Counted from the first letter of the stretch, positions 607-25,512 are shown. The stretch is 39,622 bases of DNA from an uncultured bacterium (GCA_937867625.1 CALMKR010000218.1:1-39622); one strand, 5' to 3'. Numbers and translations: made by a program. The notes: generated by a model from the letters alone, not told the origin.

Positions 607-746
607 TGGGTAAAGAACTAGAATTACTAATCAGAAAAAACGCACTCAAAGATGTAGAAGTTTGGTTATACCAACAGTACGAGGAGATTGCTAGAGAGCT
701 TGATGAGATAAGAGCCTCTAATGAATTGGAGAGTAGTGATGATTAA
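603..746 (+). CDS. hypothetical small protein (47 aa)
   Basis: ATG overlaps the HNH stop (ATGATG at 603). The 3' end overlaps the next start (ATGATTAA). Not in the track because it is under 60 aa. Confidence 0.3.
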   Translation: MMGKELELLIRKNALKDVEVWLYQQYEEIARELDEIRASNELESSDD

Positions 747-1161
747 CGAGATAAATGAAAATACATCAGACGGTTATCATACATTTAAGGAGCTATACGA
801 GTATAGATTGCTTTACAACGCCTGTATGTTTAATGAGCTGTACCGAACCCACCAAGAGTACGACATACATAAAAGCTGGAAGCATTCAGACGGTGAATTA
901 GCCTTTGGCGGTGGATGGTTTGTAGTTGTTGCTCAACTGCCAACAGGTCAAATAACAAACCACTATGATATGAAAGACTGGTATTTGTTTGACATTGAAG
1001 AACGAGATACAGCTGATAAATGGGACGGTCACACACCACAGGACGTAGCTGAACGGTTACGAGTCTATGCCGAGAGCTATGAGAGTCTCGCTAAAGTTCG
1101 GGCGAAAACTTCGTCTAGCGTACGCAAGCCCAAAAAGGACACTACAAGGGAGTCAGAATGA
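739..1161 (+). CDS. WDGH-motif protein of unknown function
   Basis: ORF contains ...ERDTADKWDGHTPQDVAERL. Start moved to ATG 739, which has GGAGAG 5 nt upstream. The 721 start is also possible. Confidence 0.5.
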   Translation: MINEINENTSDGYHTFKELYEYRLLYNACMFNELYRTHQEYDIHKSWKHSDGELAFGGGWFVVVAQLPTGQITNHYDMKDWYLFDIEERDTADKWDGHTPQDVAERLRVYAESYESLAKVRAKTSSSVRKPKKDTTRESE

Positions 1162-1807: not shown

Positions 1808-1841
1808 AGACGCATTATCTAGCGGTGGTGCGTCTTTTTTT
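1808..1841 (+). terminator. intrinsic terminator/attenuator 1 nt upstream of the RBS of the first island gene
   Basis: Stem agacgca (1808-1814)/tgcgtct (1829-1835) plus T-run 1835-1841. A competing 9-bp helix caccgctag (1781-1789)/ctagcggtg (1819-1827) uses the terminator loop. Confidence 0.55.
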
Positions 1842-1851
1842 GGAGTTAAAA

Positions 1852-2091
1852 ATGGGTAATACGATTGAATGGTTTAAATGTATGTTTAGTAAAAAACACG
1901 CTAAGAAAACAAAGCTTCGTATAACAGAGGCTAAAGAAAAGAGTATGCTAGAGAGTTTAGACATAATAGCGATACTTATATTTATGTTGCTTTTATTCAA
2001 CATAGTAAACGTCTGGTATCGCTACCAAGAGTTACAAGTTTTAAAAAACAGTGATAGAACAATAATACAAGTGGAGTTTGAAGATGAGTAG
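1852..2091 (+). CDS. small membrane protein (79 aa)
   Basis: ATG 1852 with GGAG at 1842-1845. Hydrophobic segment LDIIAILIFMLLLFNIVNVWY. The track start at 1825 (GTG) lies inside the terminator and was rejected. Confidence 0.5.
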   Translation: MGNTIEWFKCMFSKKHAKKTKLRITEAKEKSMLESLDIIAILIFMLLLFNIVNVWYRYQELQVLKNSDRTIIQVEFEDE

Positions 2092-3052
2092 AATCGCATA
2101 TATAGGTAATTTTGAGCCAGAATTTTCGACTGAAAATGATGTTCGCAAAGCGTTTGAACATCTGGGGCATACAGTTATACAGCTACAAGAAAACAAAGTC
2201 AGTATGGAACAAGTACGAGAAGAATCATTAAATAGTGACCTACTTCTAATTACTGGCACATGGGCTACTCAGCCATTAGATGAATTTATTACTCATATAC
2301 ATACTTTAGCAATCGCAGGTATACCAAGTGCTACATTACACCTCGATACGTTTTGGGGAACATCAAGAGGTGGTCGTAAGTGGTGGCTAGAGCCTATGTT
2401 TCACACTGCCTATATATTTACGGCTGATGGGGATTACAATGACAAGTGGGAGTTACTCGGCAAGAATCATATGTGGCTTATGCCGGGTGTGAGATATGAC
2501 GCAGCGAAGTTTGGTACAGAGCGTAAAGAATACGAATGTGATGTTGCCTTAGTTGGTAGTAATGGCGAGGGGTATCACGAAGATGTGTGGACATATCGTA
2601 AAGAACTTGCAGGACAACTCCGAGAAATGTGTAAGCGTAACGGTTGGACGTATAAGAACCCAGGAGGAGATGAGCCAAAAATTGACCGTAATGATGACAT
2701 GAATGACTTTTATGCAAGTGCCAAAGTCACCGTAGGTGATTCACTCTGTTTAAATAAAGAAGATTCTAAGTACTGGTCTGACAGAGTACCAGAGGCTACA
2801 GGGCGTGGTGGATTCTTAATCATGCCACAGATCAAAGCTATGAAGTACAACTACCCTAAACTTCCTACTTATTCTTGGGGTAACTGGAAACAACTAGAAG
2901 AAATGATTAAACACTACTTAGAACACGAGGACGAACGTCACACGATACAGGCTGAAAACCAACGCATTACCAAAGAAGAACACACCTACGTTAATCGAGT
3001 TAAAACTATTATGAAGATTTGCGAGGTAAACGATGAAGATGGTCAAAAGTAA
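2084..3052 (+). CDS. putative glycosyltransferase, CgeB-like (Glyco_trans_1_2-like C-terminus)
   Basis: Start at ATG 2084, 7 nt after GTGGAG. The C-terminal part ...KVTVGDSLCL...SDRVPEATGRGGFLIMPQ resembles the CgeB/YkvP-type GT C-terminal domain. Similarity judged by eye only. Confidence 0.4.
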   Translation: MSRIAYIGNFEPEFSTENDVRKAFEHLGHTVIQLQENKVSMEQVREESLNSDLLLITGTWATQPLDEFITHIHTLAIAGIPSATLHLDTFWGTSRGGRKWWLEPMFHTAYIFTADGDYNDKWELLGKNHMWLMPGVRYDAAKFGTERKEYECDVALVGSNGEGYHEDVWTYRKELAGQLREMCKRNGWTYKNPGGDEPKIDRNDDMNDFYASAKVTVGDSLCLNKEDSKYWSDRVPEATGRGGFLIMPQIKAMKYNYPKLPTYSWGNWKQLEEMIKHYLEHEDERHTIQAENQRITKEEHTYVNRVKTIMKICEVNDEDGQK

Positions 3053-3785
3053 ACTAAACGGAAAGTATGAACTGTACTTACCAGAGCATAGAGCTAACCG
3101 TGAAGAATGGCATAACGAAAAAGGTTGGGAAAAAGCTCGGCTAGAATCAATGCACAAACACATAGGTAAAGGTGATGTTGTCTACTATGTAGGAGCTGAA
3201 CTCGGAGAAATGGCGGCACTCTGTCAAATGTGGGGTGCAGAGGTAGTACTATTCGAGCCTAACTTTAGTGCATGGCCTAGTATTAAAAAAACATGGGAAG
3301 CTAACAAACTTAAAAACCCTTTGGCTTGCTATGCAGGATTTGCTAGTAATGTACATCAACCGATACCGCCTAAACCTGATATTGCTTTATTAAACGGCAA
3401 AGGTTGGGAAATAGGTGAAGATGGATTTCCACTATCTGCTAATGGAGAAATAGTCGAAGCTCATGGATTTAGTGAATTGTATTTAGAAGCTGATGGTTTA
3501 CCGCAATACAGAATTGATAACTTAGTAGCAGAGGGACTTAAACCACCAACAGTTATTACTGCTGATGTAGAGGGTGCAGATATGCAAGTACTATATGGAG
3601 CAAAAAAAACAATAGAACAGTATCACCCGAAGATATGGATGTCATGGCATCCCGAATTTCAGTTTGACCAGTACGGAATATACCTTAGAAATGCTAGAGA
3701 TTGGTTAATTGACAGAGGATATTCGGAAACGTTTTTAGACTACGAACATGAAATCCATATGTTATATGTAAGTAAGGGTGTATAA
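3033..3785 (+). CDS. FkbM-family SAM-dependent methyltransferase
   Basis: GDVVYYVGAELGEMAALCQMWGAEVVLFEPN (SAM-binding G-rich loop) and ITADVEGADMQVLYGAKKTIEQYHPKIWMSWH (the K/DxEGxE...Gaxxxl signature of FkbM enzymes). Confidence 0.75.
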   Translation: MKMVKSKLNGKYELYLPEHRANREEWHNEKGWEKARLESMHKHIGKGDVVYYVGAELGEMAALCQMWGAEVVLFEPNFSAWPSIKKTWEANKLKNPLACYAGFASNVHQPIPPKPDIALLNGKGWEIGEDGFPLSANGEIVEAHGFSELYLEADGLPQYRIDNLVAEGLKPPTVITADVEGADMQVLYGAKKTIEQYHPKIWMSWHPEFQFDQYGIYLRNARDWLIDRGYSETFLDYEHEIHMLYVSKGV

Positions 3786-4231
3786 TGTTAAGCATGAGAA
3801 CAAGACAATCAGAAATAGACATATTCAATAAGAATACTGTTAAAACTGATACTTGCTGGAATTGGATGGGTTACGTTCAAAATGCTGGTTACGGTTCTAT
3901 GGTTACATATAAACGAAATTATCTTGCTCATAGATGGGCTTTTGAAAACTTTGTAAGACCGATAAAACCAAAAATGACTATAGACCACTTGTGTAAAAAT
4001 AAAATATGCGTAAATCCTGAACACATGGAAGAAGTTACTAGAGCCGATAATATAAGACGTTGTGGGTTGCAGGGCGTTGCATTAAAAGAATCTCAAAAGA
4101 CTCATTGTAATAATGGACATGATTATTCTATATATGGCGTGAGGTATAAAAATGGATTTAACGAATATGGTACTCGTAAATATGCAAGACGATGTATAAA
4201 ATGTCATCCAAAGTTTACGAGATATGTATGA
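3785..4231 (+). CDS. HNH_3-type homing endonuclease
   Basis: CWNWMGYVQNAGYGSM...LAHRWAFENF...IDHLCKNKICVNPEHMEEVT. Paralog of 24025..24456. Confidence 0.8.
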   Translation: MLSMRTRQSEIDIFNKNTVKTDTCWNWMGYVQNAGYGSMVTYKRNYLAHRWAFENFVRPIKPKMTIDHLCKNKICVNPEHMEEVTRADNIRRCGLQGVALKESQKTHCNNGHDYSIYGVRYKNGFNEYGTRKYARRCIKCHPKFTRYV

Positions 4232-4932
4232 AAGTATTAGTTGTCATACCTGTAGCAGATTATGAGTTAGGCAAGGCTTGCATTGAATCTATATTACGAG
4301 AAGATAGTGCTTCGGGTATTGATATAGATGATGTGTTGATTATAGATAATACAAGAGAGTGGTGCTTTCCGTATGGCAAACACTACTATCGTGACCCAGA
4401 CGGACATAACATAGGCGTAGCAAGGGCGTGGAACATTGGAGCAAGACAAGTTGTAGAAAAGCAATTAGACTATCTTATTATTATGAGTCAGTCAATGTTA
4501 TTTGGACCCATAAAGGAAACGACTTGGATTAAACAAATGGAAACCTTTGCAGGGGAAAACGTTATAGAAGCAGACGGTCACTCATGGCATCTTATCGCTT
4601 TGCATAGACGGTTGTTTGAGAAAGTAGGATATTTTGACGAGAACTTTTACCCAGGTTATTTTGAGCAGATAGACTGGTGTTACCGATTAGAACTAAACGG
4701 ACTACAAAGTGCATGGGCTAGAGTATGGGTTAATGCGTTATCTCAGACAGTCGGTAATCATACGAACTTAGTACTTGCACCACCTCTGTTACAATACTAC
4801 CGTGAAAAGTGGGGTGGAGATAAAGGAGAAGAAACATTTAAACTTCCGTTTGGCGATAAGCCTATAGGTTACTTTCCTAATAATTCTATACCATACCTTG
4901 CTAAAAAGTATGAGCTAAAGGAGTGGTGGTAA
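4228..4932 (+). CDS. family 2 (GT-A) glycosyltransferase
   Basis: Start at ATG 4228 (ATGA overlap with the HNH stop). KVLVVIPVADYELGKACIESIL...VLIIDNT...NIGVARAWNIGA...VGYFDENFYPGYFEQIDWCYRL matches the usual GT2 layout. Confidence 0.7.
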   Translation: MKVLVVIPVADYELGKACIESILREDSASGIDIDDVLIIDNTREWCFPYGKHYYRDPDGHNIGVARAWNIGARQVVEKQLDYLIIMSQSMLFGPIKETTWIKQMETFAGENVIEADGHSWHLIALHRRLFEKVGYFDENFYPGYFEQIDWCYRLELNGLQSAWARVWVNALSQTVGNHTNLVLAPPLLQYYREKWGGDKGEETFKLPFGDKPIGYFPNNSIPYLAKKYELKEWW

Positions 4933-5588
4933 TGAATACTTGCGGTGTAGGACACAAACAACACGACAGGCTGTTGCTAGATACACAGCTTGGTAAGATG
5001 TGGGCGTATGATTCAGAAAAATATAGTAATCATGCAGGGTATTACTGCACCGGTCAAGATGCTATATCGGGTGCTTTAAGGATGCAGGGGTCATGGGAAG
5101 ATAGAGATACACGCCCTATATCTGAAATTCTTATTAACGGTAATAGAGATAACATTGTAATAGACTTTGGCTGTCATATAGGTTGGTATACGATCATGGC
5201 TGCACAGCTTGGCTATCATGTTATAGCAATAGACGGTGACGCTGAAAACTTAGAACTTTTATCAATGACAGCACAACTTCACGGGGTATCAGATAAGATT
5301 AAACTTATACATGATTGGGTAGACCAAGACTTCACACTTGGATTGCCAGATGTAGGTATTGAACTGGTAAAAGTAGATTTAGAGGGTAATGATGACTACG
5401 CTGTAAATTCGGTAGACCTTAGAAATGTTAAAAACTTGTATGTAGAAATATCACCTGCATTTAATAAACGTTATCCTGCACTTGTTAAAAAGATTACCAG
5501 TCAAGGCTTCAAAGCATATTACCCAGAGGACAAACCGTTTGACGATGACTTTTCTGAGAGCCAAATTAACTTGAGGTTTTCACGATGA
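4932..5588 (+). CDS. FkbM-family SAM-dependent methyltransferase (second copy)
   Basis: Start at ATG 4932 (TAATG overlap, GGAG upstream). VIDFGCHIGWYTIMAAQLGYHVIAIDGDAENLELL and LVKVDLEGNDDYAV. Confidence 0.7.
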   Translation: MNTCGVGHKQHDRLLLDTQLGKMWAYDSEKYSNHAGYYCTGQDAISGALRMQGSWEDRDTRPISEILINGNRDNIVIDFGCHIGWYTIMAAQLGYHVIAIDGDAENLELLSMTAQLHGVSDKIKLIHDWVDQDFTLGLPDVGIELVKVDLEGNDDYAVNSVDLRNVKNLYVEISPAFNKRYPALVKKITSQGFKAYYPEDKPFDDDFSESQINLRFSR

Positions 5589-6445
5589 TAGCCTACCTTT
5601 TATCGCTTAACCCAGACGCTAATATAGCCGACCAGTGGGACTTTGGTTTTCTTAAAGATATGTTTACGGATTTAGATGTAGAGTTTGAATCTGTAGACAC
5701 TATACCTAAAGGTGATAAAGCTATTGTTGTAATACCAGCTCGACATCACGCAGGAATGGAAAAGCAAGTACAAAAAGAATTAGACAATCTGAATCACTGT
5801 GTACTGTTTTTAATGGGTGATGAAGAAGCAGAGTTTGACATAGACCAAATACAGGCAACTCATATATGGGTACAAAATCCTCATCTTGGTAAGCATGACA
5901 AATACAACAAACTTGGTACAGGTTACCCACAACACATGAGCGATATACTCGAAGCTGTAGTACTTCCGATCAAAAAGAATGTAGATATATTCTATGCAGG
6001 ACAAAAGACTCATCAAAGACGAGAAGAACTTTCTGGTCAGTTAAAGACAATGCACCGTAAAAACAAGATAGAAGCTTACGACACACAAGGCTTCACACAG
6101 GGCATGAGCCATTTAGATTACTATATGGGTATGGTTGGAGCTAAAGTCGCTCCTGCACCCTCTGGTGCGGTCATACCGGATAGTTTTAGACTGTTTGAAG
6201 CGTTAGAGTGTATGGCTATCCCCATAGCCGATCAGAAAACAGCTAAAGGCGAAGTTATGGAGTATTGGGATTGGTTATTTGGCGAGATTACGCCATTCCC
6301 TCATATCACCAACTGGGAATCGTTACCGGCTTATATGAAAGAGATTAAAAAAGATTACCCACACAACATACATAAACAAACTGCGTGGTGGCTAATGTTT
6401 AAAAGGAACTTTAAATTGAAAGTATTGGAGCAATACAATGGCTAA
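5585..6445 (+). CDS. putative glycosyltransferase (exostosin/GT-B-like C-terminal signature)
   Basis: IFYAGQKTHQRREEL...APAPSGAVIPDSFRLFEALECMAIPIAD resembles the acceptor/nucleotide-binding C-terminal region of exostosin-like GTs. Weak, by eye. Confidence 0.35.
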   Translation: MIAYLLSLNPDANIADQWDFGFLKDMFTDLDVEFESVDTIPKGDKAIVVIPARHHAGMEKQVQKELDNLNHCVLFLMGDEEAEFDIDQIQATHIWVQNPHLGKHDKYNKLGTGYPQHMSDILEAVVLPIKKNVDIFYAGQKTHQRREELSGQLKTMHRKNKIEAYDTQGFTQGMSHLDYYMGMVGAKVAPAPSGAVIPDSFRLFEALECMAIPIADQKTAKGEVMEYWDWLFGEITPFPHITNWESLPAYMKEIKKDYPHNIHKQTAWWLMFKRNFKLKVLEQYNG

Positions 6446-6626
6446 ACTTAATCAAGAAATATTAGAATATTTAGCAAGCCTAGATGTTAGTGAAACGGCT
6501 ATAGAAATATTTAAACAGTTTACTATTGAAGCAGAAGCATATCACCCTAATAGCAATATGTATAGGTCGCTAGAACGTGACGCTATGTTAAGAATAGGCT
6601 ATGAGCTTGGTAAAAATGAAAAATGA
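6438..6626 (+). CDS. hypothetical protein (62 aa)
   Basis: ORF overlaps both neighbours within the coupled operon. Confidence 0.4.
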   Translation: MAKLNQEILEYLASLDVSETAIEIFKQFTIEAEAYHPNSNMYRSLERDAMLRIGYELGKNEK

Positions 6627-7359
6627 TATAACAGTCATATTAGTTAGTTCCGTACTACCGAGCCACCCAAAGCTAGATATTATTGAGGAAACTATTGCTA
6701 GTATTAGACATCACTTGCCAGACAGTGAGATTATTTTACAGATAGACGGACTACGAAAAGAACAAATAGACCGTAAAGCAGATTATGACGAATATAAGAA
6801 TCGTATACTATGGAACTGCCTACACAAGTATAAGAATGTATTACCTGTAGTATTCGATGAACACTCACATCAAACAAACATGATGAAAGCTACGATTGAT
6901 TTAATCAAAACTCCACTGATGTTGTATGTAGAGGGTGACGCTCCTTTAGTTAAGGACGAGAAAATAGACTGGGAGAAGTGTATAGCGTTTATTATGAGCG
7001 GAGAAGCCAACACTATTCGTTTTCACCACGAGGGTAAGATACCTCTAGAACATGAGGGGCTTATGCTCGGCAGAAAAGACAAGTTTATGCGTACTTACCA
7101 GTGGAGCCAACGACCACATTTGTCTACGGTTATTTATTACAAGGAGACGGTTTTACCTACGCTCCGAGAGAAGTACTTTATAGAGGACACTTATCATGGA
7201 GTGGTCATGAACGCATGGCATGAATACGGACATTTAGGATGGGCCAAACATAGGCTGTGGATTTACTACCCGAATGAAAAGAACATTAAACGAAGCTACC
7301 ATATAGACGGACGAGCCGGTGGCTTAAAATATACGTCAGATGACGAGGTAGGATTATGA
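6601..7359 (+). CDS. putative GT-A-fold glycosyltransferase
   Basis: N-terminal ITVILVSSVLPSHPKLDIIEETIASIRHHLPDSEIILQIDG and an acidic YVEGDAPL (DxD-like) motif. The start could be ATG 6616. Confidence 0.4.
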   Translation: MSLVKMKNDITVILVSSVLPSHPKLDIIEETIASIRHHLPDSEIILQIDGLRKEQIDRKADYDEYKNRILWNCLHKYKNVLPVVFDEHSHQTNMMKATIDLIKTPLMLYVEGDAPLVKDEKIDWEKCIAFIMSGEANTIRFHHEGKIPLEHEGLMLGRKDKFMRTYQWSQRPHLSTVIYYKETVLPTLREKYFIEDTYHGVVMNAWHEYGHLGWAKHRLWIYYPNEKNIKRSYHIDGRAGGLKYTSDDEVGL

Positions 7360-8357
7360 AACTCACGCTATTAGTAGTGGCTAGTAAAACTGGGCTTGGT
7401 TACCAAACGAGATCGTACTATAAACATCTCAAACCTCACAAGACTATTATTATAGACATCTCTAATTTAAATGGTATGGAGCAGAACTACGATTGGTATC
7501 CTGACGCTCAGATAATTAAAGGCATACCGAAAGATGATCAACTGCAAGGTATGTTGACCGATACAGACGTACTGATGACTGCTGAAACTCCATACAATAT
7601 GAATTTGTATCAGGTGGCACGGTCAATGCAAGTCAAAACTGTATGTGTAGAAAACCCTGAATTTTATGACCATATTAAATACCCACAGTATCAACTTCCC
7701 GACCTTATGATCTTACCGAGTACATGGCTAGAACAGGAGATTACGAGACACGCCAACGCCAAAGGCACTAAGGTTATCCAACTGCATCACCCTGTAGACC
7801 GAGAAGAAATTGAGTTTAGACTTCGTGAAAATAATAAGGTCATGCACATAGCCGGAAAGCCTGCATCACATGATAGAAATGGAACGTGGGATTTTCTACA
7901 AGCGTGTCCAAATGGGATAGTCACTACGCAAGTAGAGGAGTTTGCTAACCAGATTAGAAAACGATACAGAGACACAAGAGTTATATCTAACATACAAGAT
8001 CCAAAATATCTATATTTACTAGGAGATATACTTGTAATGCCGAGAAAGTATGGCGGTAACTGTCTACCGTTAAATGAAGCTTTAGCAAGTGGTATGCCAG
8101 TAATCATGCCTGATATTACACCTAACAATAATCTACTACCGCCTGAGTGGTTAGTACCAGCTTATATAAGTGATTCGTTCACTCCTCGTACCAAGGTAGA
8201 TATATGGACAACCGATCACAAAGCTCTAGTAGAACGTATACAATGGATTAAGTCACAGGACATGAAAAAACTATCACAGCAAGCGAGCAATATAGCTGAT
8301 ACGATTAGTTGGAAAACATTACTACCTAAATATATGGAAGCATTGGAAAGTTTATGA
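7356..8357 (+). CDS. GT-B fold glycosyltransferase (family 1/4-like)
   Basis: LGDILVMPRKYGGNCLPLNEALASGMPVIMPDITPNNNLLP is the typical C-terminal nucleotide-sugar binding motif of GT1/GT4 enzymes. Confidence 0.65.
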   Translation: MKLTLLVVASKTGLGYQTRSYYKHLKPHKTIIIDISNLNGMEQNYDWYPDAQIIKGIPKDDQLQGMLTDTDVLMTAETPYNMNLYQVARSMQVKTVCVENPEFYDHIKYPQYQLPDLMILPSTWLEQEITRHANAKGTKVIQLHHPVDREEIEFRLRENNKVMHIAGKPASHDRNGTWDFLQACPNGIVTTQVEEFANQIRKRYRDTRVISNIQDPKYLYLLGDILVMPRKYGGNCLPLNEALASGMPVIMPDITPNNNLLPPEWLVPAYISDSFTPRTKVDIWTTDHKALVERIQWIKSQDMKKLSQQASNIADTISWKTLLPKYMEALESL

Positions 8358-9019
8358 TTAAACTCAACATACTAGCTATCGCAGCAGTTGAAGATAGAAC
8401 AAATTTAGATATTCAAATTGCCAAACAAACACTACAGCCTAATAACGTATTCGTACATGTAGACAAGAATCCAGCACAGGGTATAAACGATCGTAGAAAA
8501 CGCATAGCCGAGAATCATAAGATACTTGTTCAAGCAGTAGAAGATTTGAAGCCTGATCTTGTATGGCAATTAGAAGGGGATTCAGTTCTAAACCATAATA
8601 CCTTACAAAAGCTGTATGATGACTTTCAAATACTTAAAGGTAATGGGTTTGGGTATGTATCAGGAATACAGGTCGGTAGACATGGGCTATACGCACTTGG
8701 AGCATGGACAAACTTCACCGAAGATAGTTTTGAGAGTATTAACTACACATTAGACGGATTACAACGTGTAGAAGCTACTGGATTTTATTGCTTACTAGCA
8801 CAGCCGAAAGTATGGCTGAGTGGTCAGTGTTCTTGGGATGGAGAGCCATATGGACCAGATGTAGTTTGGGGACGCAGTATACAGAAACAAAAGTATGTAG
8901 ATATGGATATTCCGATCGGACACCTTGTAAAGAACGGAATAATTAGACCAGAACATATGAGTACCTGTAATGTAAAATTTAGTAAGATAAATGGTAAATG
9001 GGAGTATAAACAACTATGA
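8354..9019 (+). CDS. possible GT-A-like transferase, otherwise hypothetical
   Basis: LNILAIAAVEDRTN... and QLEGDSVL (an EGD motif, as in 6601..7359). Weak. Confidence 0.3.
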   Translation: MIKLNILAIAAVEDRTNLDIQIAKQTLQPNNVFVHVDKNPAQGINDRRKRIAENHKILVQAVEDLKPDLVWQLEGDSVLNHNTLQKLYDDFQILKGNGFGYVSGIQVGRHGLYALGAWTNFTEDSFESINYTLDGLQRVEATGFYCLLAQPKVWLSGQCSWDGEPYGPDVVWGRSIQKQKYVDMDIPIGHLVKNGIIRPEHMSTCNVKFSKINGKWEYKQL

Positions 9020-10212
9020 ATATAAATGACATCATACCAAACAAAGATAATCCGAGAGTTATTCGAGATGATAACTTCAAAAAGCTCGTGCAATCTATAA
9101 AAGACTTTCCTGAAATGCTTGAGATTAGACCGATCGTATTGAACAAAGAACACGTTATTCTTGGTGGAAATATGCGGTATCGAGCTTGTAAAGAAGCAGG
9201 GTTAAAAGACATACCTGTTCAGATTGTAGACTTATCAGAAGAAAAACAACGTGAGTTTATTATAAAAGATAATGTTAGTGGTGGTGATTGGGATTGGGAT
9301 GTATTAGCTAATGAATGGGATACTGATTTATTGAATGATTGGGGACTTGAATTACCTGGTGGGTTTGGTGATGAGGAAGTAGAAGAAGATGAAGCACCAG
9401 AGGTAAGTAGTGAGCCACCTGTGAGTCAACTTGGAGTGGTTTATCAGTTAGGCAGACATAGGGTTATGTGTGGGGATAGTACAAATGATTTACCTATATT
9501 GATGGATGGAACAAAAGCAAACCTATTAGTAACCGATCCACCATATGGCGTTAGTTACGCTGATAAAAACGCCTTTCTTAATTCTATTTCCCGGGGAAAT
9601 AGAAACCAAACAAAGATAGAAAACGACCATATGAAGCCTGAAGAAATGAAAGAGTTTTGGACAGAATCATTCGGGGCAATATTTGCTTATCTTGAAAGTG
9701 ATGCTAGTTTCTACATAACCTCCCCACAAGGAGGGGAACTACTACTACTACTACAGTCATTATACGATATTGGTTATCCCTCAAGACACATGATTATCTG
9801 GGCAAAGAACAACCATGTTTTAGGTAGATGTGACTATAATTACAAACATGAGCCAATTCTGTATGGGTGGTTAGAAAAGCACAAGTTCTACGGTAATGGC
9901 ACACAGAAAACGAGTGTTTGGAACATAGATAAACCACACCAGAGCAAAGAACATCCAACAATGAAACCAGTAGAGTTATTTGCAGAGTGTGTTTTGAACG
10001 GTACTGAAAAAGGACAGGTGGTACTAGACGCTTATCTAGGTAGCGGAACTACTCTAATAGCTTGTGAACAAACAGACCGCACTTGTTACGGCATGGAGCT
10101 TGACCCTAAATATGTAGATGTTATACGCAAAAGGTATGCTAAGTTTATAGGTGAAGAAGATTGGGAAGCAGTAACACTAGAAATCAGCGGAGGAACAGCG
10201 GATGGCTCTTAA
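9016..10212 (+). CDS. ParB-like nuclease domain fused to an N6-adenine/N4-cytosine DNA methyltransferase
   Basis: N-terminus IRPIVLNKEHVILGGNMRYRACKEAGLKDIPV (ParB/Srx fold). Methyltransferase motif IV LLVTDPPYG, then HPTMKPVEL and motif I VLDAYLGSGTT (beta-class order). Confidence 0.85.
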   Translation: MNINDIIPNKDNPRVIRDDNFKKLVQSIKDFPEMLEIRPIVLNKEHVILGGNMRYRACKEAGLKDIPVQIVDLSEEKQREFIIKDNVSGGDWDWDVLANEWDTDLLNDWGLELPGGFGDEEVEEDEAPEVSSEPPVSQLGVVYQLGRHRVMCGDSTNDLPILMDGTKANLLVTDPPYGVSYADKNAFLNSISRGNRNQTKIENDHMKPEEMKEFWTESFGAIFAYLESDASFYITSPQGGELLLLLQSLYDIGYPSRHMIIWAKNNHVLGRCDYNYKHEPILYGWLEKHKFYGNGTQKTSVWNIDKPHQSKEHPTMKPVELFAECVLNGTEKGQVVLDAYLGSGTTLIACEQTDRTCYGMELDPKYVDVIRKRYAKFIGEEDWEAVTLEISGGTADGS

Positions 10213-10612
10213 CCCACAAAACATAGAACAACACAAGTTCAAACCGGGACAATCGGGCAACCCTGCCGGAAGACCACCGGGTATACCTAATGCAAAAACA
10301 AGGTATAAAAGATTACTAGAACTTGTTACTAAGAAAGCTAACCCTGTAACTGGTGAGATAGAAGAATTTACTCAACTAGAATTGATGGACATGGCTATTT
10401 TTAATAAAGCACTAAAGGGTGATTTAAGAGCCTATAAAGAAGTGATGGATAGACTAGAGGGAACATCTGCACAAAGCGTAGACTTAACAAGCGGTGGTGA
10501 AAAGCTACCAACAGTTATAATAGAAAATGTATATGGAACAAAACCAAACTTCCGAGTCAATAATGAGGTTGCCGAGGCTGATAACGTGGCAACAGACAGT
10601 AACCCAGAATAA
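10202..10612 (+). CDS. terminase small subunit (putative)
   Basis: Position immediately upstream of TerL. N-terminal KPGQSGNPAGRPPG motif is common in small terminases. Confidence 0.55.
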   Translation: MALNPQNIEQHKFKPGQSGNPAGRPPGIPNAKTRYKRLLELVTKKANPVTGEIEEFTQLELMDMAIFNKALKGDLRAYKEVMDRLEGTSAQSVDLTSGGEKLPTVIIENVYGTKPNFRVNNEVAEADNVATDSNPE

Positions 10613-11768
10613 CGCTAGATTTAAAATACTTAGATGTGGACGTAGAACTGGTAAGACTTTTTATTTTATTATAGATAGTTTATCGCTTGGGTTACTCTAT
10701 CCTAATTTATCTATGGCGTATGTTGGCTTAACGTATGGTCATGCAAAAGATGTGGTATGGGAAGATTATATAAAGCTTGCCGGTGGATTGATTGAATATA
10801 AGAACAGCCAAGAGTTAATAATACGACTACATAATGGCTCACGCATAAAATTGTACTCATGGGATTCAGTCGATAATATGCTTGGTAAGAAGTATCACAA
10901 GGTCTATTTAGATGAGTGTGCTGTAGCTAAGAACTTAAAAAAAGCTTGGGAAGATGTAATCGAGCCTACACTATTGGATTATCATGGTGAAGCGTTATTT
11001 GCTTCTATGCCTCGTGGTAAAGGTCAATTTAAAGCTATGATTGACGAGAGTAAAAAGAAAGATGATTGGCAAGACTTTCACTTTACATCTTATGATAATG
11101 ACACTATCCCAAATGTAAGAGAGGATTTGGATCGCAAGCGTAGAGATATAGCACCTAGTGTATTTGCTCAACAATACCTTGCAGAGTTTACTGATTTAGA
11201 GGGCCGTATATATACTGAATTTAAGCGTGATGATGCATTACAAGAATGTCCATTTACGCCTATACGATATGGGTTTAGTGTAGACTTTGGCTACAATCAC
11301 CCACTTGCGGCTTATGTATACGCTATAGGAAGTGACGATCAGATTCATGTTATTAAAGAACTGTATGCTCGCAAGTTAGATGATTTACAACGTGTACAAG
11401 CTATTAAAGATTTAACCGATGAGTATAGAATAGATGTTGCAGTAGCAGATAGTGAAGACCCGATTGCGATACAACAGCTATCTAGAGAATTAAACTTTAG
11501 GGTAGACCCTGCTGTTAAAGGTAAAGACTCAGTGTTTCAAGGTATTAACGAAATGAAATCAGCCTTTCATTCAGGGCAACTTACGGTCAGTGATACATGT
11601 ACAAACTTAATAGACGAATTAGAAATATACAGTTGGAAGCTAGATGCAGAGGGCAAGGAAACCGATCAACCAATAAAAGAGAATGATGACGCTTGCGACT
11701 CAGTAAGGTACTTTGTTACTAAGATACGAAACACAAGTTTAATAACAATGCAAGATATTGCAATGTGA
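10527..11768 (+). CDS. terminase large subunit
   Basis: Walker A LRCGRRTGKTF, Walker B-like VYLDEC, and a C-terminal nuclease region with acidic residues. Start uncertain (10527 or 10563). Confidence 0.85.
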   Translation: MYMEQNQTSESIMRLPRLITWQQTVTQNNARFKILRCGRRTGKTFYFIIDSLSLGLLYPNLSMAYVGLTYGHAKDVVWEDYIKLAGGLIEYKNSQELIIRLHNGSRIKLYSWDSVDNMLGKKYHKVYLDECAVAKNLKKAWEDVIEPTLLDYHGEALFASMPRGKGQFKAMIDESKKKDDWQDFHFTSYDNDTIPNVREDLDRKRRDIAPSVFAQQYLAEFTDLEGRIYTEFKRDDALQECPFTPIRYGFSVDFGYNHPLAAYVYAIGSDDQIHVIKELYARKLDDLQRVQAIKDLTDEYRIDVAVADSEDPIAIQQLSRELNFRVDPAVKGKDSVFQGINEMKSAFHSGQLTVSDTCTNLIDELEIYSWKLDAEGKETDQPIKENDDACDSVRYFVTKIRNTSLITMQDIAM

Positions 11769-18707: not shown

Positions 18708-19004
18708 ATGCAGTTACATCTATATGGCGGTGAAAAACTTGTTTTAACTGTAGATGACGCTGTGCAATATATTAAGGTAAACGGCACAGATAACATCTTT
18801 GGTATATCTGATGAGAAAGTGGCGTATTTTGCTGGACTTAAAAAGTTAAATAAAGACACTACTAAAGCCGAAGAATTACTGACTAAAGATATTACTTTGT
18901 TTGAATACTACTATGAAAAAGGTGAACTGGAATTAGACAAACTAGACCATGCAACCAGAGACAAACTTAAACAAAAATTACCTGATGTGAAAGTGAAAAT
19001 ATAA
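18708..19004 (+). CDS. hypothetical protein (98 aa)
   Basis: ORF with AGGAGAAG upstream. Confidence 0.45.
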   Translation: MQLHLYGGEKLVLTVDDAVQYIKVNGTDNIFGISDEKVAYFAGLKKLNKDTTKAEELLTKDITLFEYYYEKGELELDKLDHATRDKLKQKLPDVKVKI

Positions 19005-20503
19005 TGGCAGTAACTATTAGAGGCAGTCAAACGTATCAGTCTGGAAGCGGTGGATTTTTATCTTCGCACACTATGGCAGACCTTGATGTTACAGGAACAG
19101 ATACATGTGCTATAGCTGCTGGGTTCAACCGTAACCCTGCTTCTGATGTAGGTTCATGGACGTTTGAGGGTAACACTCCTACTGCAATAGCTGACTCAAT
19201 AAACGCTAATGTGGTAGCTGTTAGTACTCAGCGTTATTTAATAAGTAACGCAGCTACTACAATCGTATCTAATACACCATCATTTAAGCTACAAGCCATG
19301 ATAGGCGTTGCCTTAGAGGGTGTTGACCAGACTACACCTATTGCTGGTTCTACTACTGGTGGTTCTTATGGCACAGCTGCGACTGCAAGCTATACAGGTA
19401 CAAGTGGCAACATGTTGCTTGTATTTGTATCTACTCAAAACGATAGAACATTTACTGCTTCGGGTACAACTGATATAACCTCAGTCACTCATGCAGACGC
19501 TAACCTTGGTTCGGGTTATGCAGGGTATGTATCGGCTACAGGAAGCTCGCAAACTATAGGAGCAACTTTATCGGCTAACGATAACTGGCGCTTAGTAATA
19601 ATGGAAGTTACGGCTGCTGCTTCGGGTACTACGCTTGTAGTACAAGATATATCTACAACGCCAACTTTCGAAGTACCTGCATTAACTCAAGCTAACACCC
19701 TTGTAGTACAAGACGCTTCTATTACGCCTACACTGGAAAACGTAGCACTCACTCAAGCTAATACTCTAGTCGTACAGGATATATCTACTACACCAACATT
19801 AGAAAGTCCTGTTTTAAGTTTATCGTTGATAGTAGCGGACATTAGCAGTACACCTACACTAGAAAGCCCTACATTAACGCAAGCCAACACATTGGCAGTA
19901 AATAATGTTAGTACTACTCCTACTATAGAAAGTCCTGCACTTACTCAGGCAAATACCCTTGTAGTAACTGATATAAGTACAACACCAACTTTTGAAAGTC
20001 CTGCACTTACGCAAGCTAATAATCTAACTGTAGCTAATGTATCTACAGCCCCTACATTTGAAAGCCCTGTTTTAACTCAAGCCAATACTTTAGCTGTAGC
20101 CGACATATCTACTACACCTACTTTAGAAGCTACTGATGTATCTGGTGCAAATGTTCTATCTGTAAATGATATATCGACAACTCCTAGCTTCGAAATACCG
20201 AGTCTTATGCAAGCTAATAATCTTGCAGTACAAGATGTGAGTATAGTAACAGGATTAGATTCAACAACTCTTGATACAGGGATTACTACATTAACGGTAC
20301 AAGATTTAAGTCTTACACCTACACTAGAAACAATAGATTTTAGCACCGCAGTAGATATAGAACTTACTATTAGACAAATACAAACGGATATTGAAGTATC
20401 TCAAGAACTAACTGATTTAATTATAAGACAACAAATAACCGATATAATCGTAGAACAAGTAACTGATTCTATAATTGTTCGTCAGGAAATATCAGAAGTA
20501 TGA
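19004..20503 (+). CDS. tandem-repeat Ser/Thr/Pro-rich protein (putative virion fibre or decoration protein)
   Basis: 499 aa. Residues 206-445 form eleven units of consensus TQANTLVVQDISTTPTLESPAL. The C-terminus has three IRQ..TDIIV-like mini-repeats. Confidence 0.6.
   Translation: MAVTIRGSQTYQSGSGGFLSSHTMADLDVTGTDTCAIAAGFNRNPASDVGSWTFEGNTPTAIADSINANVVAVSTQRYLISNAATTIVSNTPSFKLQAMIGVALEGVDQTTPIAGSTTGGSYGTAATASYTGTSGNMLLVFVSTQNDRTFTASGTTDITSVTHADANLGSGYAGYVSATGSSQTIGATLSANDNWRLVIMEVTAAASGTTLVVQDISTTPTFEVPALTQANTLVVQDASITPTLENVALTQANTLVVQDISTTPTLESPVLSLSLIVADISSTPTLESPTLTQANTLAVNNVSTTPTIESPALTQANTLVVTDISTTPTFESPALTQANNLTVANVSTAPTFESPVLTQANTLAVADISTTPTLEATDVSGANVLSVNDISTTPSFEIPSLMQANNLAVQDVSIVTGLDSTTLDTGITTLTVQDLSLTPTLETIDFSTAVDIELTIRQIQTDIEVSQELTDLIIRQQITDIIVEQVTDSIIVRQEISEV
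19619..20338 (+). repeat. in-frame tandem repeat: 11 units, period 66 nt (one 60-nt unit)
   Basis: Unit boundaries at aa 206, 228, 250, 272, 292, 314, 336, 358, 380, 402 and 424. DNA copies differ at many synonymous positions. Confidence 0.85.
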
Positions 20504-20754: not shown

Positions 20755-21453
20755 ATGCACATAAAAGCAGATGGGTTAATAGAAAAAGCTAGTCGATTAA
20801 AAGAGGGCGAAGTAGAATTTGTGGTATCAACGAACGCATGGGACGCTCACGGTGAACGTATCAATGTAGACGGCATAGACATAAAAGACTTTAAGAAAAA
20901 CCCTGTTGTATTATGGGGTCATGATGGATTTAACCTACCTATAGCCAAAGCCACTAAGGTTTGGAAAGAGGGTGGCAAGTTAATGGCTAAAGCTCAGTTC
21001 TATATGAAAGATGAGTTTGCAGCCAAAGTATATAACTACATTCTTGACGGATACTTGAACGCTGTATCGATCGGTGGAATGGTGCAAGAGTGGGGATCAG
21101 ATGGACTTACTATTACGAAGATGATGATGAAAGAGTTTAGTGTTGTATCAATCCCTGCTAACCAAGAAGCACTAGTCGCTAGTAAGTCATTTGATGGTAA
21201 TCAGAAAGCGGAACTCCGGGCATTGGCTAACGCTTACGCTCGTAAGATGCTGACTGATGGTAATGAAATTAAAAACGATATACAAGTATTGAAAACACTC
21301 GTAGCCACTTTAGAGGAATTAAGCTTTGCTGAACCCGAAGAAGCGTTGGCAGACGAAACAACTAATAGACGGGTTATTTTGCGCCAAGCGCAAGCGGTCG
21401 ATAACCAAGTTGAAACTGTCATAAGACAAATTAAATTGAAAGGAAACTCATAA
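20755..21453 (+). CDS. HK97-family prohead protease (S78-like) with C-terminal coiled region
   Basis: VEFVVSTNAWDAHGERI...VVLWGHD...FSVVSIPANQEA. Positioned directly upstream of the capsid gene. Confidence 0.8.
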   Translation: MHIKADGLIEKASRLKEGEVEFVVSTNAWDAHGERINVDGIDIKDFKKNPVVLWGHDGFNLPIAKATKVWKEGGKLMAKAQFYMKDEFAAKVYNYILDGYLNAVSIGGMVQEWGSDGLTITKMMMKEFSVVSIPANQEALVASKSFDGNQKAELRALANAYARKMLTDGNEIKNDIQVLKTLVATLEELSFAEPEEALADETTNRRVILRQAQAVDNQVETVIRQIKLKGNS

Positions 21454-22682
21454 TGAGTACAGAAAAAATCGAAATTGACTCAGACGTTATTGACGCTGTT
21501 TCAAAATCAGTTCAGGAAGCTCTAAAAGCTGACATGCCTAAAGCTGCAAGTGCAGACGAAATCGCTGACGCAATTATTGCTAAGACTGAAAAAGTAGAAA
21601 AGAAAGCTATTCACAGTGACGAAAAACCAGTTGTTAAAACTTCTGCTATGGAATCACTTAGTAAAGAACAACGCTTTGCAAAAGGTCTTGTTGCTTTTAA
21701 GAATAACGACTCAGTAGGAATTGCTGAATATAACTCTTATGTCGATAAGGCATGGAGCGAAGTAAACAAAGCTAACTACCAAAACGTTACAACTGCTGCT
21801 GACGGTGCTGCTCTAGTACCAGACCCAGAATTTGTTGCAGAGGTAGAACGACTTACGCAGGATTACGGTGTTGCTGCTCGTTTAGCTGATGTTCGTGTTA
21901 CTGATCGTGACTCTGTAACATTGCTTGCTGGTACAAACGAAATCTCGTTTACTCGTACAGGTGAAGCTACAGCGCAGAACGCTCAGAAACTTACTTACTC
22001 AGCTACAACTGTTGCACTTGATAAGTACATTGCTACACTAGTATTTACTAGCGAAGTTATTGAAGATGCTGCTATCAATCTTTGGAATGATGCTGCAACT
22101 GAAATCGCTCGTGCAAGAGCTAAATTGTTTGACCAATTAGTATTCACTGACGCTACATATGGCTTGCTATATGCACCTGATGCTGGTGAAGCTTTCAAAA
22201 CTCTATCAGTTGGTTCAGCCATCACAGATTTCTCTGCTGATGATGCTATGGATTCACGTTACCTCGTAGTCGGTTCAGTCCGTCGTGCAGGTCGTTACTT
22301 CATGCACCCTACTGTTTGGAACATGCTACGACAAACTAAAGAAGCTACTACTGGCGGTTACTTATTCGGTGGCGTTGGTGGTTCAGTAACTCCTATGATT
22401 GACGGTGTTGCTGTAGAACTAGTTGATATTCTTCCTGAAAAGGGTGAAATCACAGCTAACGAGCCTTTTGCAGTATTCGGTGATTTAAGCCGAGTTAAAC
22501 TACACGTTAAAAGACTATTGGAAACAAAAATCTTTGATAGCGGTGTTGTAAAAGACGCTGGCGGTTCTGACATTAACCTGATCACTCAGGACGCATGGGC
22601 AATGCGAGCTACACTTCGATGTGTACCGCAAACACGCTTCCCCGGAGCTTTCGTAATCATTGGAACTGGTGTTGTTTCTTAA
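21453..22682 (+). CDS. major capsid protein, HK97 fold, with N-terminal delta-like domain
   Basis: 409 aa, ATGA-coupled to the protease. Ala/Lys/Glu-rich N-terminal region of about 100 aa, then a typical HK97-type body. Confidence 0.85.
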   Translation: MSTEKIEIDSDVIDAVSKSVQEALKADMPKAASADEIADAIIAKTEKVEKKAIHSDEKPVVKTSAMESLSKEQRFAKGLVAFKNNDSVGIAEYNSYVDKAWSEVNKANYQNVTTAADGAALVPDPEFVAEVERLTQDYGVAARLADVRVTDRDSVTLLAGTNEISFTRTGEATAQNAQKLTYSATTVALDKYIATLVFTSEVIEDAAINLWNDAATEIARARAKLFDQLVFTDATYGLLYAPDAGEAFKTLSVGSAITDFSADDAMDSRYLVVGSVRRAGRYFMHPTVWNMLRQTKEATTGGYLFGGVGGSVTPMIDGVAVELVDILPEKGEITANEPFAVFGDLSRVKLHVKRLLETKIFDSGVVKDAGGSDINLITQDAWAMRATLRCVPQTRFPGAFVIIGTGVVS

Positions 22683-22718: not shown

Positions 22719-23246
22719 ATGGCACAAATTTCAAAGCTAAAAGTAGCAGCCGGATCTCTCATCACCTTTGGTGGTGTTGATTTAGGACATACTGTTGATG
22801 GTGCTGAAATTGAAATCGAGCGAGAGTTTACCGAAGTAAAGACTGACTTATACGGAAATACACCTGTAGATTACGTTTTGTCTGGTCAAAAAGCTACAGT
22901 CAAACTCAAGCTTGCTGAAATTCACCCGTTTACTCTTAACTATGTCATGCCTGAGAATGATTATGACGTTGGTACTGCTGACGATCATACTCACTTTGGT
23001 ACAAAGGCTGGTTACAGTTTGCGAAATGACGCTCTTGAATTAGTTATCACCCCACAAGGTGGTAATGCTGATGGCAACCTAACCTTTACTTTCTTCAAAG
23101 CGGTATCTACTGAAAACGCTACGCTTGCTTACAAAATAGATGAGCAATCAGTGTTTGAAGTAACGTTTACTGCTCTCGTTGATGAGAGTCGAGCTGCAAC
23201 CGATGGACGATTCCTCGGACGCATGGGACCAGTCAATATTTCATAG
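22719..23246 (+). CDS. putative major tail (tube) protein
   Basis: 175 aa. KLKVAAGSLITFGGVDLGHTVDGAEIEIEREFTEVKTDLYGNTPVDYVLSGQKATVKLKLAE resembles siphovirus tube proteins. No other tube candidate lies between the tail terminator and the chaperones. Confidence 0.5.
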   Translation: MAQISKLKVAAGSLITFGGVDLGHTVDGAEIEIEREFTEVKTDLYGNTPVDYVLSGQKATVKLKLAEIHPFTLNYVMPENDYDVGTADDHTHFGTKAGYSLRNDALELVITPQGGNADGNLTFTFFKAVSTENATLAYKIDEQSVFEVTFTALVDESRAATDGRFLGRMGPVNIS

Positions 23247-24464: not shown

Positions 24465-24773
24465 ATGCTTCACACTGCGTATAAGGTTACTACAACCAGA
24501 AATGCCTATGGCGACTTTGTACAAGGTGCAGAGGTAGAACATGCTTGTCACTTTCGATACATCACTGAACAGGTAAGCAGTCAATCTAACGAGGTTATAA
24601 ATTCTGACGCTATGGCGTGGTTTAATCCTGACAGTGGAATAGATAAAGAAGATATACTTAGAATAGATGGTGAGTACTTTAGAGTAGAGCGTGTAACAAA
24701 AGCTCGCAGACTTCGTAACCCAGAGGTATTATTTATTAAAGTCACTCTGCTGAGATATGGGGTAATATCGTGA
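24465..24773 (+). CDS. head closure / head-tail adaptor protein
   Basis: About 100 aa, supported by position. ...DILRIDGEYFRVERV pattern matches SPP1 gp16-like proteins. Confidence 0.5.
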   Translation: MLHTAYKVTTTRNAYGDFVQGAEVEHACHFRYITEQVSSQSNEVINSDAMAWFNPDSGIDKEDILRIDGEYFRVERVTKARRLRNPEVLFIKVTLLRYGVIS

Positions 24774-25126
24774 ATATTGTGAACGACAAAATGCCTCAAT
24801 TTAAACGAAGTCTTTATAATGTATTAGATGACGCATTTCGAGAGGGAGCAAGAGATACACTTATAAATGCTAAACAAAACGCACCATTCGATAAGGGTGG
24901 ATTGCGTAGTGAAACAGAAGTAAGCAAACCGGGTATATTGCACTACCGAGTATCATTTTGGAAAGAGTACGCTCGTTATCAAGAATTTGGTGGAGATGAT
25001 AATCGTACTGTTAGAAACTACTCAACTGCCGGTACTGGCAAAGCATATTTAAAAACAGCCGGGGATAAAGAAGCTACTAAGTTAGTAATGACAATTAAAA
25101 AACATATACCGAGGGTTCGAGTATGA
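24770..25126 (+). CDS. HK97 gp10-like tail-completion/neck protein
   Basis: ...NAKQNAPFDKGGLRSE... motif, plus position. Confidence 0.5.
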   Translation: MNIVNDKMPQFKRSLYNVLDDAFREGARDTLINAKQNAPFDKGGLRSETEVSKPGILHYRVSFWKEYARYQEFGGDDNRTVRNYSTAGTGKAYLKTAGDKEATKLVMTIKKHIPRVRV

Positions 25127-25512
25127 TAGACGTTGCATTAACAGTCGGAACATATCTAGACAATGCCGGGTTTGGTACGGTTGGAACTGATATATTTATT
25201 GGTCAAATACCTGCTACACAAGATGGTATATATGTACTTCGTGCCGGTGGACAAATGAATAACTATGTACCTATTGAAGAATCTGTAGTAGACATATATG
25301 TAAAGAATACTACCTCACAGCAAGCTATACAGACCTTAGAACAGATTAAACGCTACATTCACCGTATGCACTCTACAACTATTGGTAATGATTACATCTA
25401 TACCTTTTTAGTTTTAGGTGATATAGAAGATGTACAGCGTGATTTAGAGTTAGCAAAGATTTATAAAATAACCCTGCAAGTAGTTCATAGGGACGAAGCA
25501 GTAATAAGTTAG
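25123..25512 (+). CDS. tail terminator-like protein
   Basis: Position and size (129 aa). Confidence 0.4.
   Translation: MIDVALTVGTYLDNAGFGTVGTDIFIGQIPATQDGIYVLRAGGQMNNYVPIEESVVDIYVKNTTSQQAIQTLEQIKRYIHRMHSTTIGNDYIYTFLVLGDIEDVQRDLELAKIYKITLQVVHRDEAVIS

Follow-up and report, generated by a model that had tools for sequence, protein, structure and literature searches.

The window examined here is a stretch of 39,622 nucleotides (nt) of DNA from an uncultured bacterium (GCA_937867625.1 CALMKR010000218.1:1-39622), and the element in question is a cassette of ten genes, g1 to g10, made up mostly of glycosyltransferase and methyltransferase genes (Table 1). The rest of the window belongs to a siphovirus, with portal-Mu-F, prohead protease, HK97-type capsid, tail tube, neck proteins, a short tape measure, Dit and a CHAP endolysin, as well as three C1q/BclA_C-like fibre paralogues. 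Its large terminase subunit (TerL) is at most ~30% identical to those of cultured phages, and a megablast search of the island against GenBank phages returned no nucleotide match.

Organization and enzymes of the cassette

A preliminary description of this DNA had reported an unbroken run of translationally coupled genes on the + strand. All the junctions that it listed are present, and the chain of overlapping genes extends from 1825 to 11768 with zero gaps. The stop/start sequence TAATG is found at 3783-3787 (g2/g3) and 4930-4934 (g4/g5), and ATGA at 4228, 5585, 7356, 8354 and 9016; further overlaps join g1 and g2 (20 nt), g6 and g7 (8 nt), and g7 and g8 (26 nt). Since the chain runs without a break into the genes for a ParB-methyltransferase, the small terminase subunit (TerS) and TerL, the island is the front of a packaging operon rather than a separate unit.

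The profile and fold searches, which had been set beforehand as a refuting check, assigned all eight candidate enzymes to glycosyltransferase or methyltransferase folds: six are glycosyltransferases (g1, g4, g6, g8, g9, g10) and two are S-adenosylmethionine (SAM) methyltransferases (g2, g5). None of the island enzymes has a membrane segment, and no membrane glycosyltransferase family was detected among them by Pfam. Structures were predicted with AlphaFold2 (AF2) for g8 and g10, and the calls for g1, g4, g6 and g9 rest on profiles. The CgeB-like nature proposed for g1 was confirmed by PF13524 (52.1 bits against a gathering cutoff of 25) and by the glycosyltransferase family phrog_28745 (3.5e-29); the gene is syntenic in more than 40 loci. 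The GT2 reading of g4 agrees with its PHROG match (phrog_29879 galactosyltransferase, 1.3e-12), with no match in Pfam. The GT-B reading of g9 agrees with phrog_2170 (1.2e-13); Glycos_transf_1 (PF00534) lies just under its gathering cutoff (24.0 against 26.4 bits), and the profile of the g9 family matches 7qsg, deposited as a D-inositol 3-phosphate glycosyltransferase (0.0019).

Both methyltransferases had been described as FkbM enzymes, which holds for g2 only. This protein passes the curated Pfam and NCBIfam FkbM cutoffs (36.1 bits against 22.7 and 47.8 against 37.7, respectively), its profile matches the FkbM structure PDB 2py6 (4.5e-8), and D178-x-E180-G181 is invariant in its family. The other protein, g5, scores 27.4 against the FkbM cutoff of 37.7; it is therefore assigned simply to the class I SAM methyltransferases, the FkbM type not being established.

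A single g6 sequence stays below threshold, and an alignment of 29 family members was built for the profile searches, in which the exostosin-like character suggested earlier was recovered at the family level: RXYLT1_C is matched by 22 of the 29 members and Exostosin_GT47 by 12, with no match in PHROG. The best solved match of the family profile is A075L of the chlorovirus PBCV-1 (8avq, 8asa, 8q8i; E 7e-6, profile positions 150-260), i.e., the beta-xylosyltransferase of the PBCV-1 capsid-protein glycan and the founder of GT114, whose Arg208 binds phosphate (PMC11571054). The invariant R202 of g6 is aligned with this arginine, located in the A075L motif THRLWE. The alignment stops short of the N-terminal half, where the invariant D79/E80 and R146 are candidates for the counterparts of the catalytic base Asp73 and of Arg158. 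From these profile alignments, g6 appears to share ancestry with the chlorovirus capsid-glycan machinery.

The two proteins previously called GT-A-like, g8 and g10, have no Pfam, PHROG or PDB-sequence match, and sequence-profile searches of these two, g1 and g4 against the PDB gave nothing usable. Their AF2 models have a pLDDT of 91 and 95, respectively. The best 50 PDB matches of g8 by Foldseek are all GT-A enzymes, among them POMGnT1, B4GALNT1, TarS/TarP, SpsA, RmlT and ppGalNAc-T; for g10, Foldseek returned GT-A enzymes only, with COLGALT1 and STIV A197 on top, followed by mimivirus R699 and LH3, and g10 also resembles FkbM-fused and multi-domain glycosyltransferases of uncultured phages. 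The GT-A assignment is thus made by predicted fold, and the putative metal/donor motif is E-x-D rather than DxD (E111-x-D113 in g8 and E74-x-D76 in g10, each invariant in its family).

Two genes of the run are not assigned to the pathway. The open reading frame (ORF) at 3785-4231 (g3), left uncalled in the preliminary description, is an HNH homing endonuclease according to Pfam and PHROG. It is missing between g2 and g4 in a 94%-identical relative (L024), so that its insertion is recent. No Pfam or PHROG match was found for the small g7.

Table 1. Features of the cassette, of the gene chain and of the candidate acceptors (positions counted from the first nucleotide of the window)
Feature	Position	Strand	Basis or remark
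88-aa protein, one membrane segment (KD19 2.56)	1825..2091	+	overlaps g1 by 8 nt; 87% conserved in L024
g1, CgeB-like glycosyltransferase, core	2084..3052	+	PF13524 Glyco_trans_1_2
g2, FkbM-family SAM methyltransferase, core	3033..3785	+	PF05050/TIGR01444
g3, HNH homing endonuclease	3785..4231	+	not a pathway enzyme
g4, GT-A/GT2-like glycosyltransferase, accessory	4228..4932	+	PHROG galactosyl-/glycosyltransferase families only
g5, class I SAM methyltransferase, accessory	4932..5588	+	profiles; pairs with g4
g6, exostosin/GT114-like GT-B glycosyltransferase, core	5585..6445	+	family profile
g7, 62-aa ORF	6438..6626	+	close relatives only
g8, GT-A glycosyltransferase, core	6601..7359	+	AF2 and Foldseek
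g9, GT-B (GT4-like) glycosyltransferase, core	7356..8357	+	profiles
g10, GT-A glycosyltransferase, frequent core gene	8354..9019	+	AF2 and Foldseek
ParB-N6/N4 DNA methyltransferase, TerS, TerL	9016..11768	+	joined to the island via overlaps
499-aa protein, ~12 tandem 22-aa Ser/Thr/Pro-rich repeats	19004..20503	+	alternative acceptor, this phage only
Major capsid protein	21453..22682	+	candidate acceptor; end ...GTGVVS-COOH
Tail tube	22719..23246	+	candidate acceptor; end ...GPVNIS-COOH
Neck protein	24465..24773	+	candidate acceptor; end ...YGVIS-COOH
Neck/tail-top protein	25123..25512	+	candidate acceptor; end ...EAVIS-COOH

Conservation, synteny and mobility of the cassette

Relatives were gathered from IMG/VR, GTDB genomes and metagenome protein collections, for a total of more than 60 loci. 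The order g1-g2-g6-g8-g9, often followed by g10, is kept at 25-94% identity and across GC contents of 0.32-0.69 (tblastn), and these genes form a syntenic, mobile core. Within the lineage defined by the portal of the window, the cassette is present in every contig with enough upstream sequence, one contig (L081) being unclear. A hunt for lineage members lacking the cassette, undertaken to spot a co-varying acceptor, thus found none among those contigs. The genes g4, g5 and g7 are accessory and restricted to few relatives: g4 is found only in L014, L024, L026 and L044, and in L026 the g4-g5 pair occupies the usual place of g2. Varied homing endonucleases (HNH, NUMOD3 and Endo VII-like) lie at different sites within the cassettes of relatives (L007, L026, L044, L048).

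Other accessory genes embedded in the cassettes of relatives include an NAD-epimerase/dehydratase together with PIG-L (L022, L014, L034), a class I methyltransferase, a nucleotidyl (NTP)-transferase, a SAM synthetase and a radical-SAM enzyme. The distant cassettes at L050:1721-2722, L035:1992-2873 and L051:10785-11591 carry the SAM synthetase, a MobA/IspD-like NTP-transferase and the radical-SAM enzyme; the first two functions suggest that the methyl donor or an activated sugar is provided by some of the phages themselves.

The preliminary description had regarded so large an enzyme set as unusual for a phage. It is not an oddity of a single phage: a full-database profile search of public data returned 988 clusters of the g8 family at 50% identity. 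It is, however, essentially absent from cultured phages, in that g2, g6, g8 and g9 have no tblastn match in 50,697 GenBank phages, and the only relatives of g1 in cultured phages belong to nine Streptomyces phages, in which a glycosyltransferase, a hypothetical protein and a methyltransferase are grouped together. Gene fusion is frequent in the g8 family. Most of the 150 listed representatives are proteins of 500-600 aa in which g8 is the C-terminal half, and the N-terminal half of these fusions is g6 (hhalign probability 100%). In Mycolicibacterium moriokaense, g6 and g8 form a single protein, and in Nocardia pulmonis a triple fusion g1-g6-g8 exists.

The same isolates bear on the label "virulent" given to this phage. 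No integrase was found here, which is an absence of evidence, and the cassette also occurs in prophage-like regions of Nocardia and Mycolicibacterium isolates; among GenBank phages, blastn found nothing that matches the prophage flank. Several unrelated genomes have head genes beside the cassette. In the element found in M. moriokaense, TerS, portal-MuF and capsid genes are located just downstream of it; a Mu-F head protein is encoded upstream of it in N. pulmonis; and in two other loci (L041, L042) it follows the capsid gene immediately. As a separate observation, an early-region WDGH-domain protein of the window (721-1161) is 62% identical to one of Nocardia sp. NPDC056564 (L034:13985-14269), encoded 1.2 kb downstream of the cassette, a value far above the identity of the cassette genes to those of the same strain (33-54%).

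Candidate acceptors and a proposed role in virion glycosylation

Four non-homologous virion proteins (the capsid protein, the tail tube and two neck proteins) have in common the C-terminus [Val/Ile]-Ser-COOH. The last two residues are invariant in 6-8 relatives of the lineage and the preceding ones are variable. Codons of both types, TCN and AGY, are used for the terminal serine, and the DNA that follows is not the same among relatives, which indicates that selection acts on the protein. The remaining virion proteins of the lineage have variable C-termini. Among 64 proteins, 0.51 [VI]-S termini are expected from composition and four are seen, all of them in virion proteins (P = 0.002). This motif is the strongest clue to a virion-protein acceptor. 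In unrelated genomes, the capsids linked to the cassette end in ...APGIS (M. moriokaense, L032), ...NSGS (L017) and ...SQPT (L041/42). The tail-tube homologues of SSU5 and of the Stenotrophomonas phage ANB28, two phages with no tblastn match to g2, g6, g8 or g9, end in ...NSAQ and ...VITP; these homologues precede chaperones and tape measure, on which the identification of the tail tube at 22719-23246 is based. In the window, the tail tube gene directly follows the capsid gene instead of preceding chaperones and tape measure, and its product is conserved more strongly than any other protein of the lineage (77-89% identity). A scan of C-termini in other, unannotated cassette loci proved too noisy and was not used.

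On balance, the evidence leans towards surface proteins of the phage itself being O-glycosylated and O-methylated in the cytoplasm, probably at this C-terminal serine tag. Four to five soluble core glycosyltransferases (g1, g6, g8, g9, g10) and the FkbM methyltransferase would build a short O-methylated oligosaccharide, using NDP-sugars (nucleoside diphosphate sugars) and SAM of the host as donors, and the additional GT-A/methyltransferase pair g4+g5 would extend the set in this phage. The cassette would be translated together with the packaging genes, and the acceptors would be surface proteins present in many copies (major capsid, tail tube and the two neck proteins), recognized through the shared [Val/Ile]-Ser-COOH; attachment at the tag of such proteins would give an assembled virion with a glycan coat. 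The folds of the enzymes, the conserved and mobile character of the cassette and the conserved tag are shown by the analysis. The acceptor, the linkage through serine and the order of the enzymes are what we infer, as is the benefit, which might be shielding or adhesion. Among the targets considered in the preliminary description, virion proteins are favoured, because of the coupling to packaging genes, the neighbourhood of head genes in unrelated genomes and the action of A075L on a capsid-protein glycan.

Several points weigh on the other side. None of the cassette enzymes could be singled out as the protein-initiating transferase, and no homology is detectable between them and the enzymes of the mycobacteriophages Che8 and Corndog. 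In the 101-kb phage L022, the cassette lies away from the structural genes, and in L014, L015 and L049, whose structural genes are unannotated and in which the scan is noisy, no obvious tag was seen. Finally, the argument based on the terminal serine comes from few independent lineages, and assembly contacts could also conserve a terminus.

The main rival explanation is that, prior to export and on the cytoplasmic side, the enzymes modify a glycopolymer of the host envelope (teichoic-acid-like, arabinogalactan, lipoglycan or an S-layer protein), blocking superinfection or the adsorption of progeny to debris. The fold of g8 is as close to the wall-teichoic-acid enzymes TarS, TarP and RmlT as to protein glycosyltransferases; TarP is itself prophage-encoded, and the prophage-like elements of isolates are a setting in which lysogenic conversion makes sense. 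Moreover, the endolysin and the lysis genes suggest a monoderm host provided with wall polymers. Known conversion systems, however, consist of one to three enzymes, often membrane-bound, whereas five to eight soluble ones are encoded here, without a flippase or a polyprenol-linked step. Pfam and PHROG scans of the ORFs of the window detected no sugar-nucleotide synthesis gene, flippase or glycan polymerase, in agreement with what had been noticed at first, and no polyprenol/lipid-carrier step. A lipid-linked surface glycan is therefore unlikely, since an initiating polyprenol transferase, a flippase, a polymerase and a membrane-bound glycosyltransferase are all missing from the set. The coupling to late packaging genes, the presence of the core in a lineage apparently devoid of integrase and the [VI]-S ends conserved on four virion proteins, which would remain unexplained, also speak against an envelope target, and this explanation is considered unlikely.

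A different acceptor on the virion itself might be provided by internal Ser/Thr-rich fibre regions, as in the serine-rich-repeat adhesins of streptococci. Two proteins encoded between portal and protease would be concerned, i.e., the 499-aa protein with STTPT repeats of 22 aa (repeat unit TQANTLVVQDISTTPTLESPAL, TRF period 66) and a beta-helix-like protein of 841 aa. Relatives carry proteins with 21-25% Ser+Thr in the same variable slot, the slot of L005 holds another protein with 22-aa repeats, and the g9 profile matches Gtf1/GtfA of the serine-rich-repeat pathway (E 0.019), a match that is weak and generic for GT4. Against a conserved cassette stands a repeat protein limited to this phage, with no homologue in the fetched relatives, in a hypervariable slot; as a general acceptor it was rejected for its lack of conservation. 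Fibre regions as the acceptors are accordingly held to be rather improbable, even if they may be compatible with tag-directed glycosylation as additional or alternative sites.

The slot itself spans ~6 kb from portal to prohead protease (14308-20503). It begins with a conserved protein of 250-290 aa, followed by a hypervariable set that differs in every relative and comprises the 841-aa protein (21-25% Ser+Thr, apparently beta-helix-like) and small Thr-rich or Ig-like proteins. It resembles an exchangeable slot for fibre or decoration proteins within the head module.

The ParB-methyltransferase gene that adjoins the island raised the possibility that the enzymes glycosylate phage DNA as hypermodified bases, thereby evading restriction. 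We know of no O-methylated sugars on phage DNA. According to the passage of PMC12619734 that cites Pyle 2024, phage glycosyltransferases acting on DNA containing 5-hydroxymethylcytosine can make diverse glycans. No thymidylate-synthase-family hydroxymethylase was found in the window (the ORFs 13799-14353, 20755-21453, 24025-24456, 26104-27573 and 27573-28355 were scanned against PHROGs only), as already supposed, and neither a nucleotide kinase nor a phage DNA polymerase is present among the listed ORFs; more generally, no integrase, polymerase or nucleotide-metabolism enzyme was found among the ORFs of the window. Besides, the ParB-methyltransferase does not regularly accompany the cassette, being absent in L002, L003, L005, L032 and others. 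The lack of base-modification enzymes in the window and this inconsistent linkage make DNA a very improbable target.

Equally little credit is given to the idea that the product is a methylated oligosaccharide, free or bound to lipid, similar to the polymethylated polysaccharides that Mycobacterium and Nocardia have in their cytoplasm, or that a small molecule is decorated. The alternation of glycosyltransferase and methyltransferase genes and the association with actinobacteria fit such a product, and FkbM enzymes are common in natural-product tailoring. On the other hand, no benefit for a lytic phage is evident, and the cassette is tied to head/packaging genes in several unrelated genomes.

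Coming back to the glycosylation of virion proteins, a broader proposal can be made more tentatively, and we regard it as possible rather than probable. The cassette might be a portable and widespread glycan-coat system, in which a fixed set of five to six genes, usually with a fused GT114-like/GT-A enzyme, reads [Val/Ile]-Ser-COOH on capsid, neck and tail tube, so that the entire particle is coated with a methylated glycan peculiar to the lineage; it would operate in phages of actinobacteria and possibly of other monoderms. If this were true, glycosylated virions would be frequent among environmental phages, and the process would have one enzyme ancestry (GT114) in common with chlorovirus capsid glycosylation. 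With nearly 1000 sequence clusters and a gene order that is kept over a twofold range of GC content, the cassette would point to a second, unrelated and much more widely distributed system of virion glycosylation. A glycan coat would have consequences for the stability and adsorption of the phage, for its recognition by the immune system in therapy and for capsid engineering, and the soluble fused glycosyltransferases might become glyco-engineering tools. Glycosylation at the tag leads to a concrete and inexpensive prediction, in that the C-terminal [VI]-S peptides of the four virion proteins should be shifted in mass, and culturable entry points are offered by the prophage-like elements of M. 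moriokaense DSM 44221, Nocardia asiatica NBRC 100129 and N. pulmonis CDC141.

Known glycosylation systems, host and other features of the window

To our knowledge, only a few mycobacteriophages have been shown to glycosylate their virions, and the study that described this reportedly found little sign of glycosylation in other phages. In the citing passages of two later papers, the mycobacteriophage glycans are placed at the C-termini of capsid and tail-tube subunits (Freeman et al. 2023, Cell Host Microbe 31:1216, cited in PMC12619734 and PMC12363180). Che8 and Corndog resemble the present phage in three respects. Firstly, soluble phage-encoded glycosyltransferases lie beside packaging/head genes: those for Che8 gp108-110 are located just before cos and TerS, and Corndog gp38 (named an essential glycosyltransferase) lies with the unannotated gp35-37 between portal and protease, with 4-nt overlaps. 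Secondly, the capsid and tail-tube proteins have a terminal serine (...NKTGS and ...YSDGS in Che8; ...PLVGS and ...IKGDS in Corndog). The capsid and tail-tube proteins of L5 and Bxb1, which we take as negative comparators and presume to be non-glycosylated, have no terminal serine. Thirdly, their hosts are actinobacteria, and the cassette was found in Nocardia and Mycolicibacterium.

The differences concern the enzymes and the tag. Comparisons of the cassette with Che8 gp108-110 and Corndog gp38 gave hhalign probabilities of 0.3-1.2%; a weak BLASTP similarity between Corndog gp38 and g6 (E 0.009) was rejected by hhalign, and Ardmore gp87 resembles g10 at the fold level only. The present cassette has more genes, in a fixed set (five to six in the core, besides the accessory ones), and it includes a GT114-like enzyme and g6-g8 fusions; its tag is [VI]-S instead of G/D-S and is found on two neck proteins as well. 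The present system thus appears to function in the manner of that of the mycobacteriophages without being a member of it.

With the chlorovirus PBCV-1 (A075L, A064R, A111/114R) the proposed system would share a virus-encoded, cytoplasmic synthesis of a methylated glycan on the major capsid protein, a mixture of GT-A, GT-B/exostosin-like and methyltransferase enzymes (A064R presumably has a methyltransferase domain) and multi-domain fusions. In addition, A075L is similar in length to g6 and the position of Arg208 is conserved. Unlike the present phage, PBCV-1 is a eukaryotic giant virus with N-linked glycans, and the similarity is confined to g6, in its donor-binding half. In the streptococcal serine-rich-repeat system (GtfA/B plus extenders), soluble glycosyltransferases also act in sequence on a cytoplasmic protein acceptor, and the window holds a Ser/Thr repeat protein; this system differs in that the similarity is of a weak, generic GT4 type, no accessory Sec system is present and the repeat protein is unconserved here. 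TarP and Gtr-type conversion likewise involve phage-borne enzymes, GT-A in fold, and the g8 fold resembles TarP and TarS, but single enzymes or membrane-bound sets act there in lysogenic conversion, whereas a soluble multi-enzyme set is placed here on late genes.

The host is probably a monoderm. The cassette is associated with actinobacteria, occurring in Nocardia, in Mycolicibacterium, in Streptomyces phages and in the WhiB-bearing phage L022; no WhiB was found in the window, and the attempt to infer its host in this way failed. The labels of the metagenome-assembled genomes (MAGs) containing contigs of this low-GC lineage disagree (Saccharibacteria, Gammaproteobacteria, Cellvibrionaceae, Heimdallarchaeota), and because of this conflict they were treated as binning noise. 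GTDB MAG contigs with the cassette (L026, L033, L039, L043-L045) bear Saccharibacteria (six loci), Heimdallarchaeota, Gammaproteobacteria and Firmicutes labels; these labels are probably due to misbinning, but the repeated one, Saccharibacteria, could hint at the host.

As to the remaining features, the TerS and TerL ORFs as called (10202-11768) overlap by 86 nt, and the start of TerL may lie further downstream. The portal (11822-13789, 655 aa) carries a C-terminal Mu-F-like head-morphogenesis domain, and the same fusion exists in the M. moriokaense element (L032:14479-16659). Three tandem paralogues with the common N-terminus M-x-K-I-S/T-A-L-P are encoded at 30061-31708; C1q-like and BclA_C-like domains were detected in the ORF set that includes them, and they are probably receptor-binding fibres. 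An exact direct repeat of 55 nt occurs at 1-55 and 39340-39394, the second copy ~230 nt before the end of the window, and the ORFs in which the two copies are embedded resemble each other (CTCGNEAKREAIQQELLKA). The repeat has the appearance of an assembly overlap, one k-mer long, from a genome that is circular or terminally redundant, with a strain variant. Lastly, the genome contains at least three strongly supported HNH homing endonucleases and two weaker HNH-like ORFs (154-606, 1274-1606, 3785-4231, 13799-14353 and 24025-24456).

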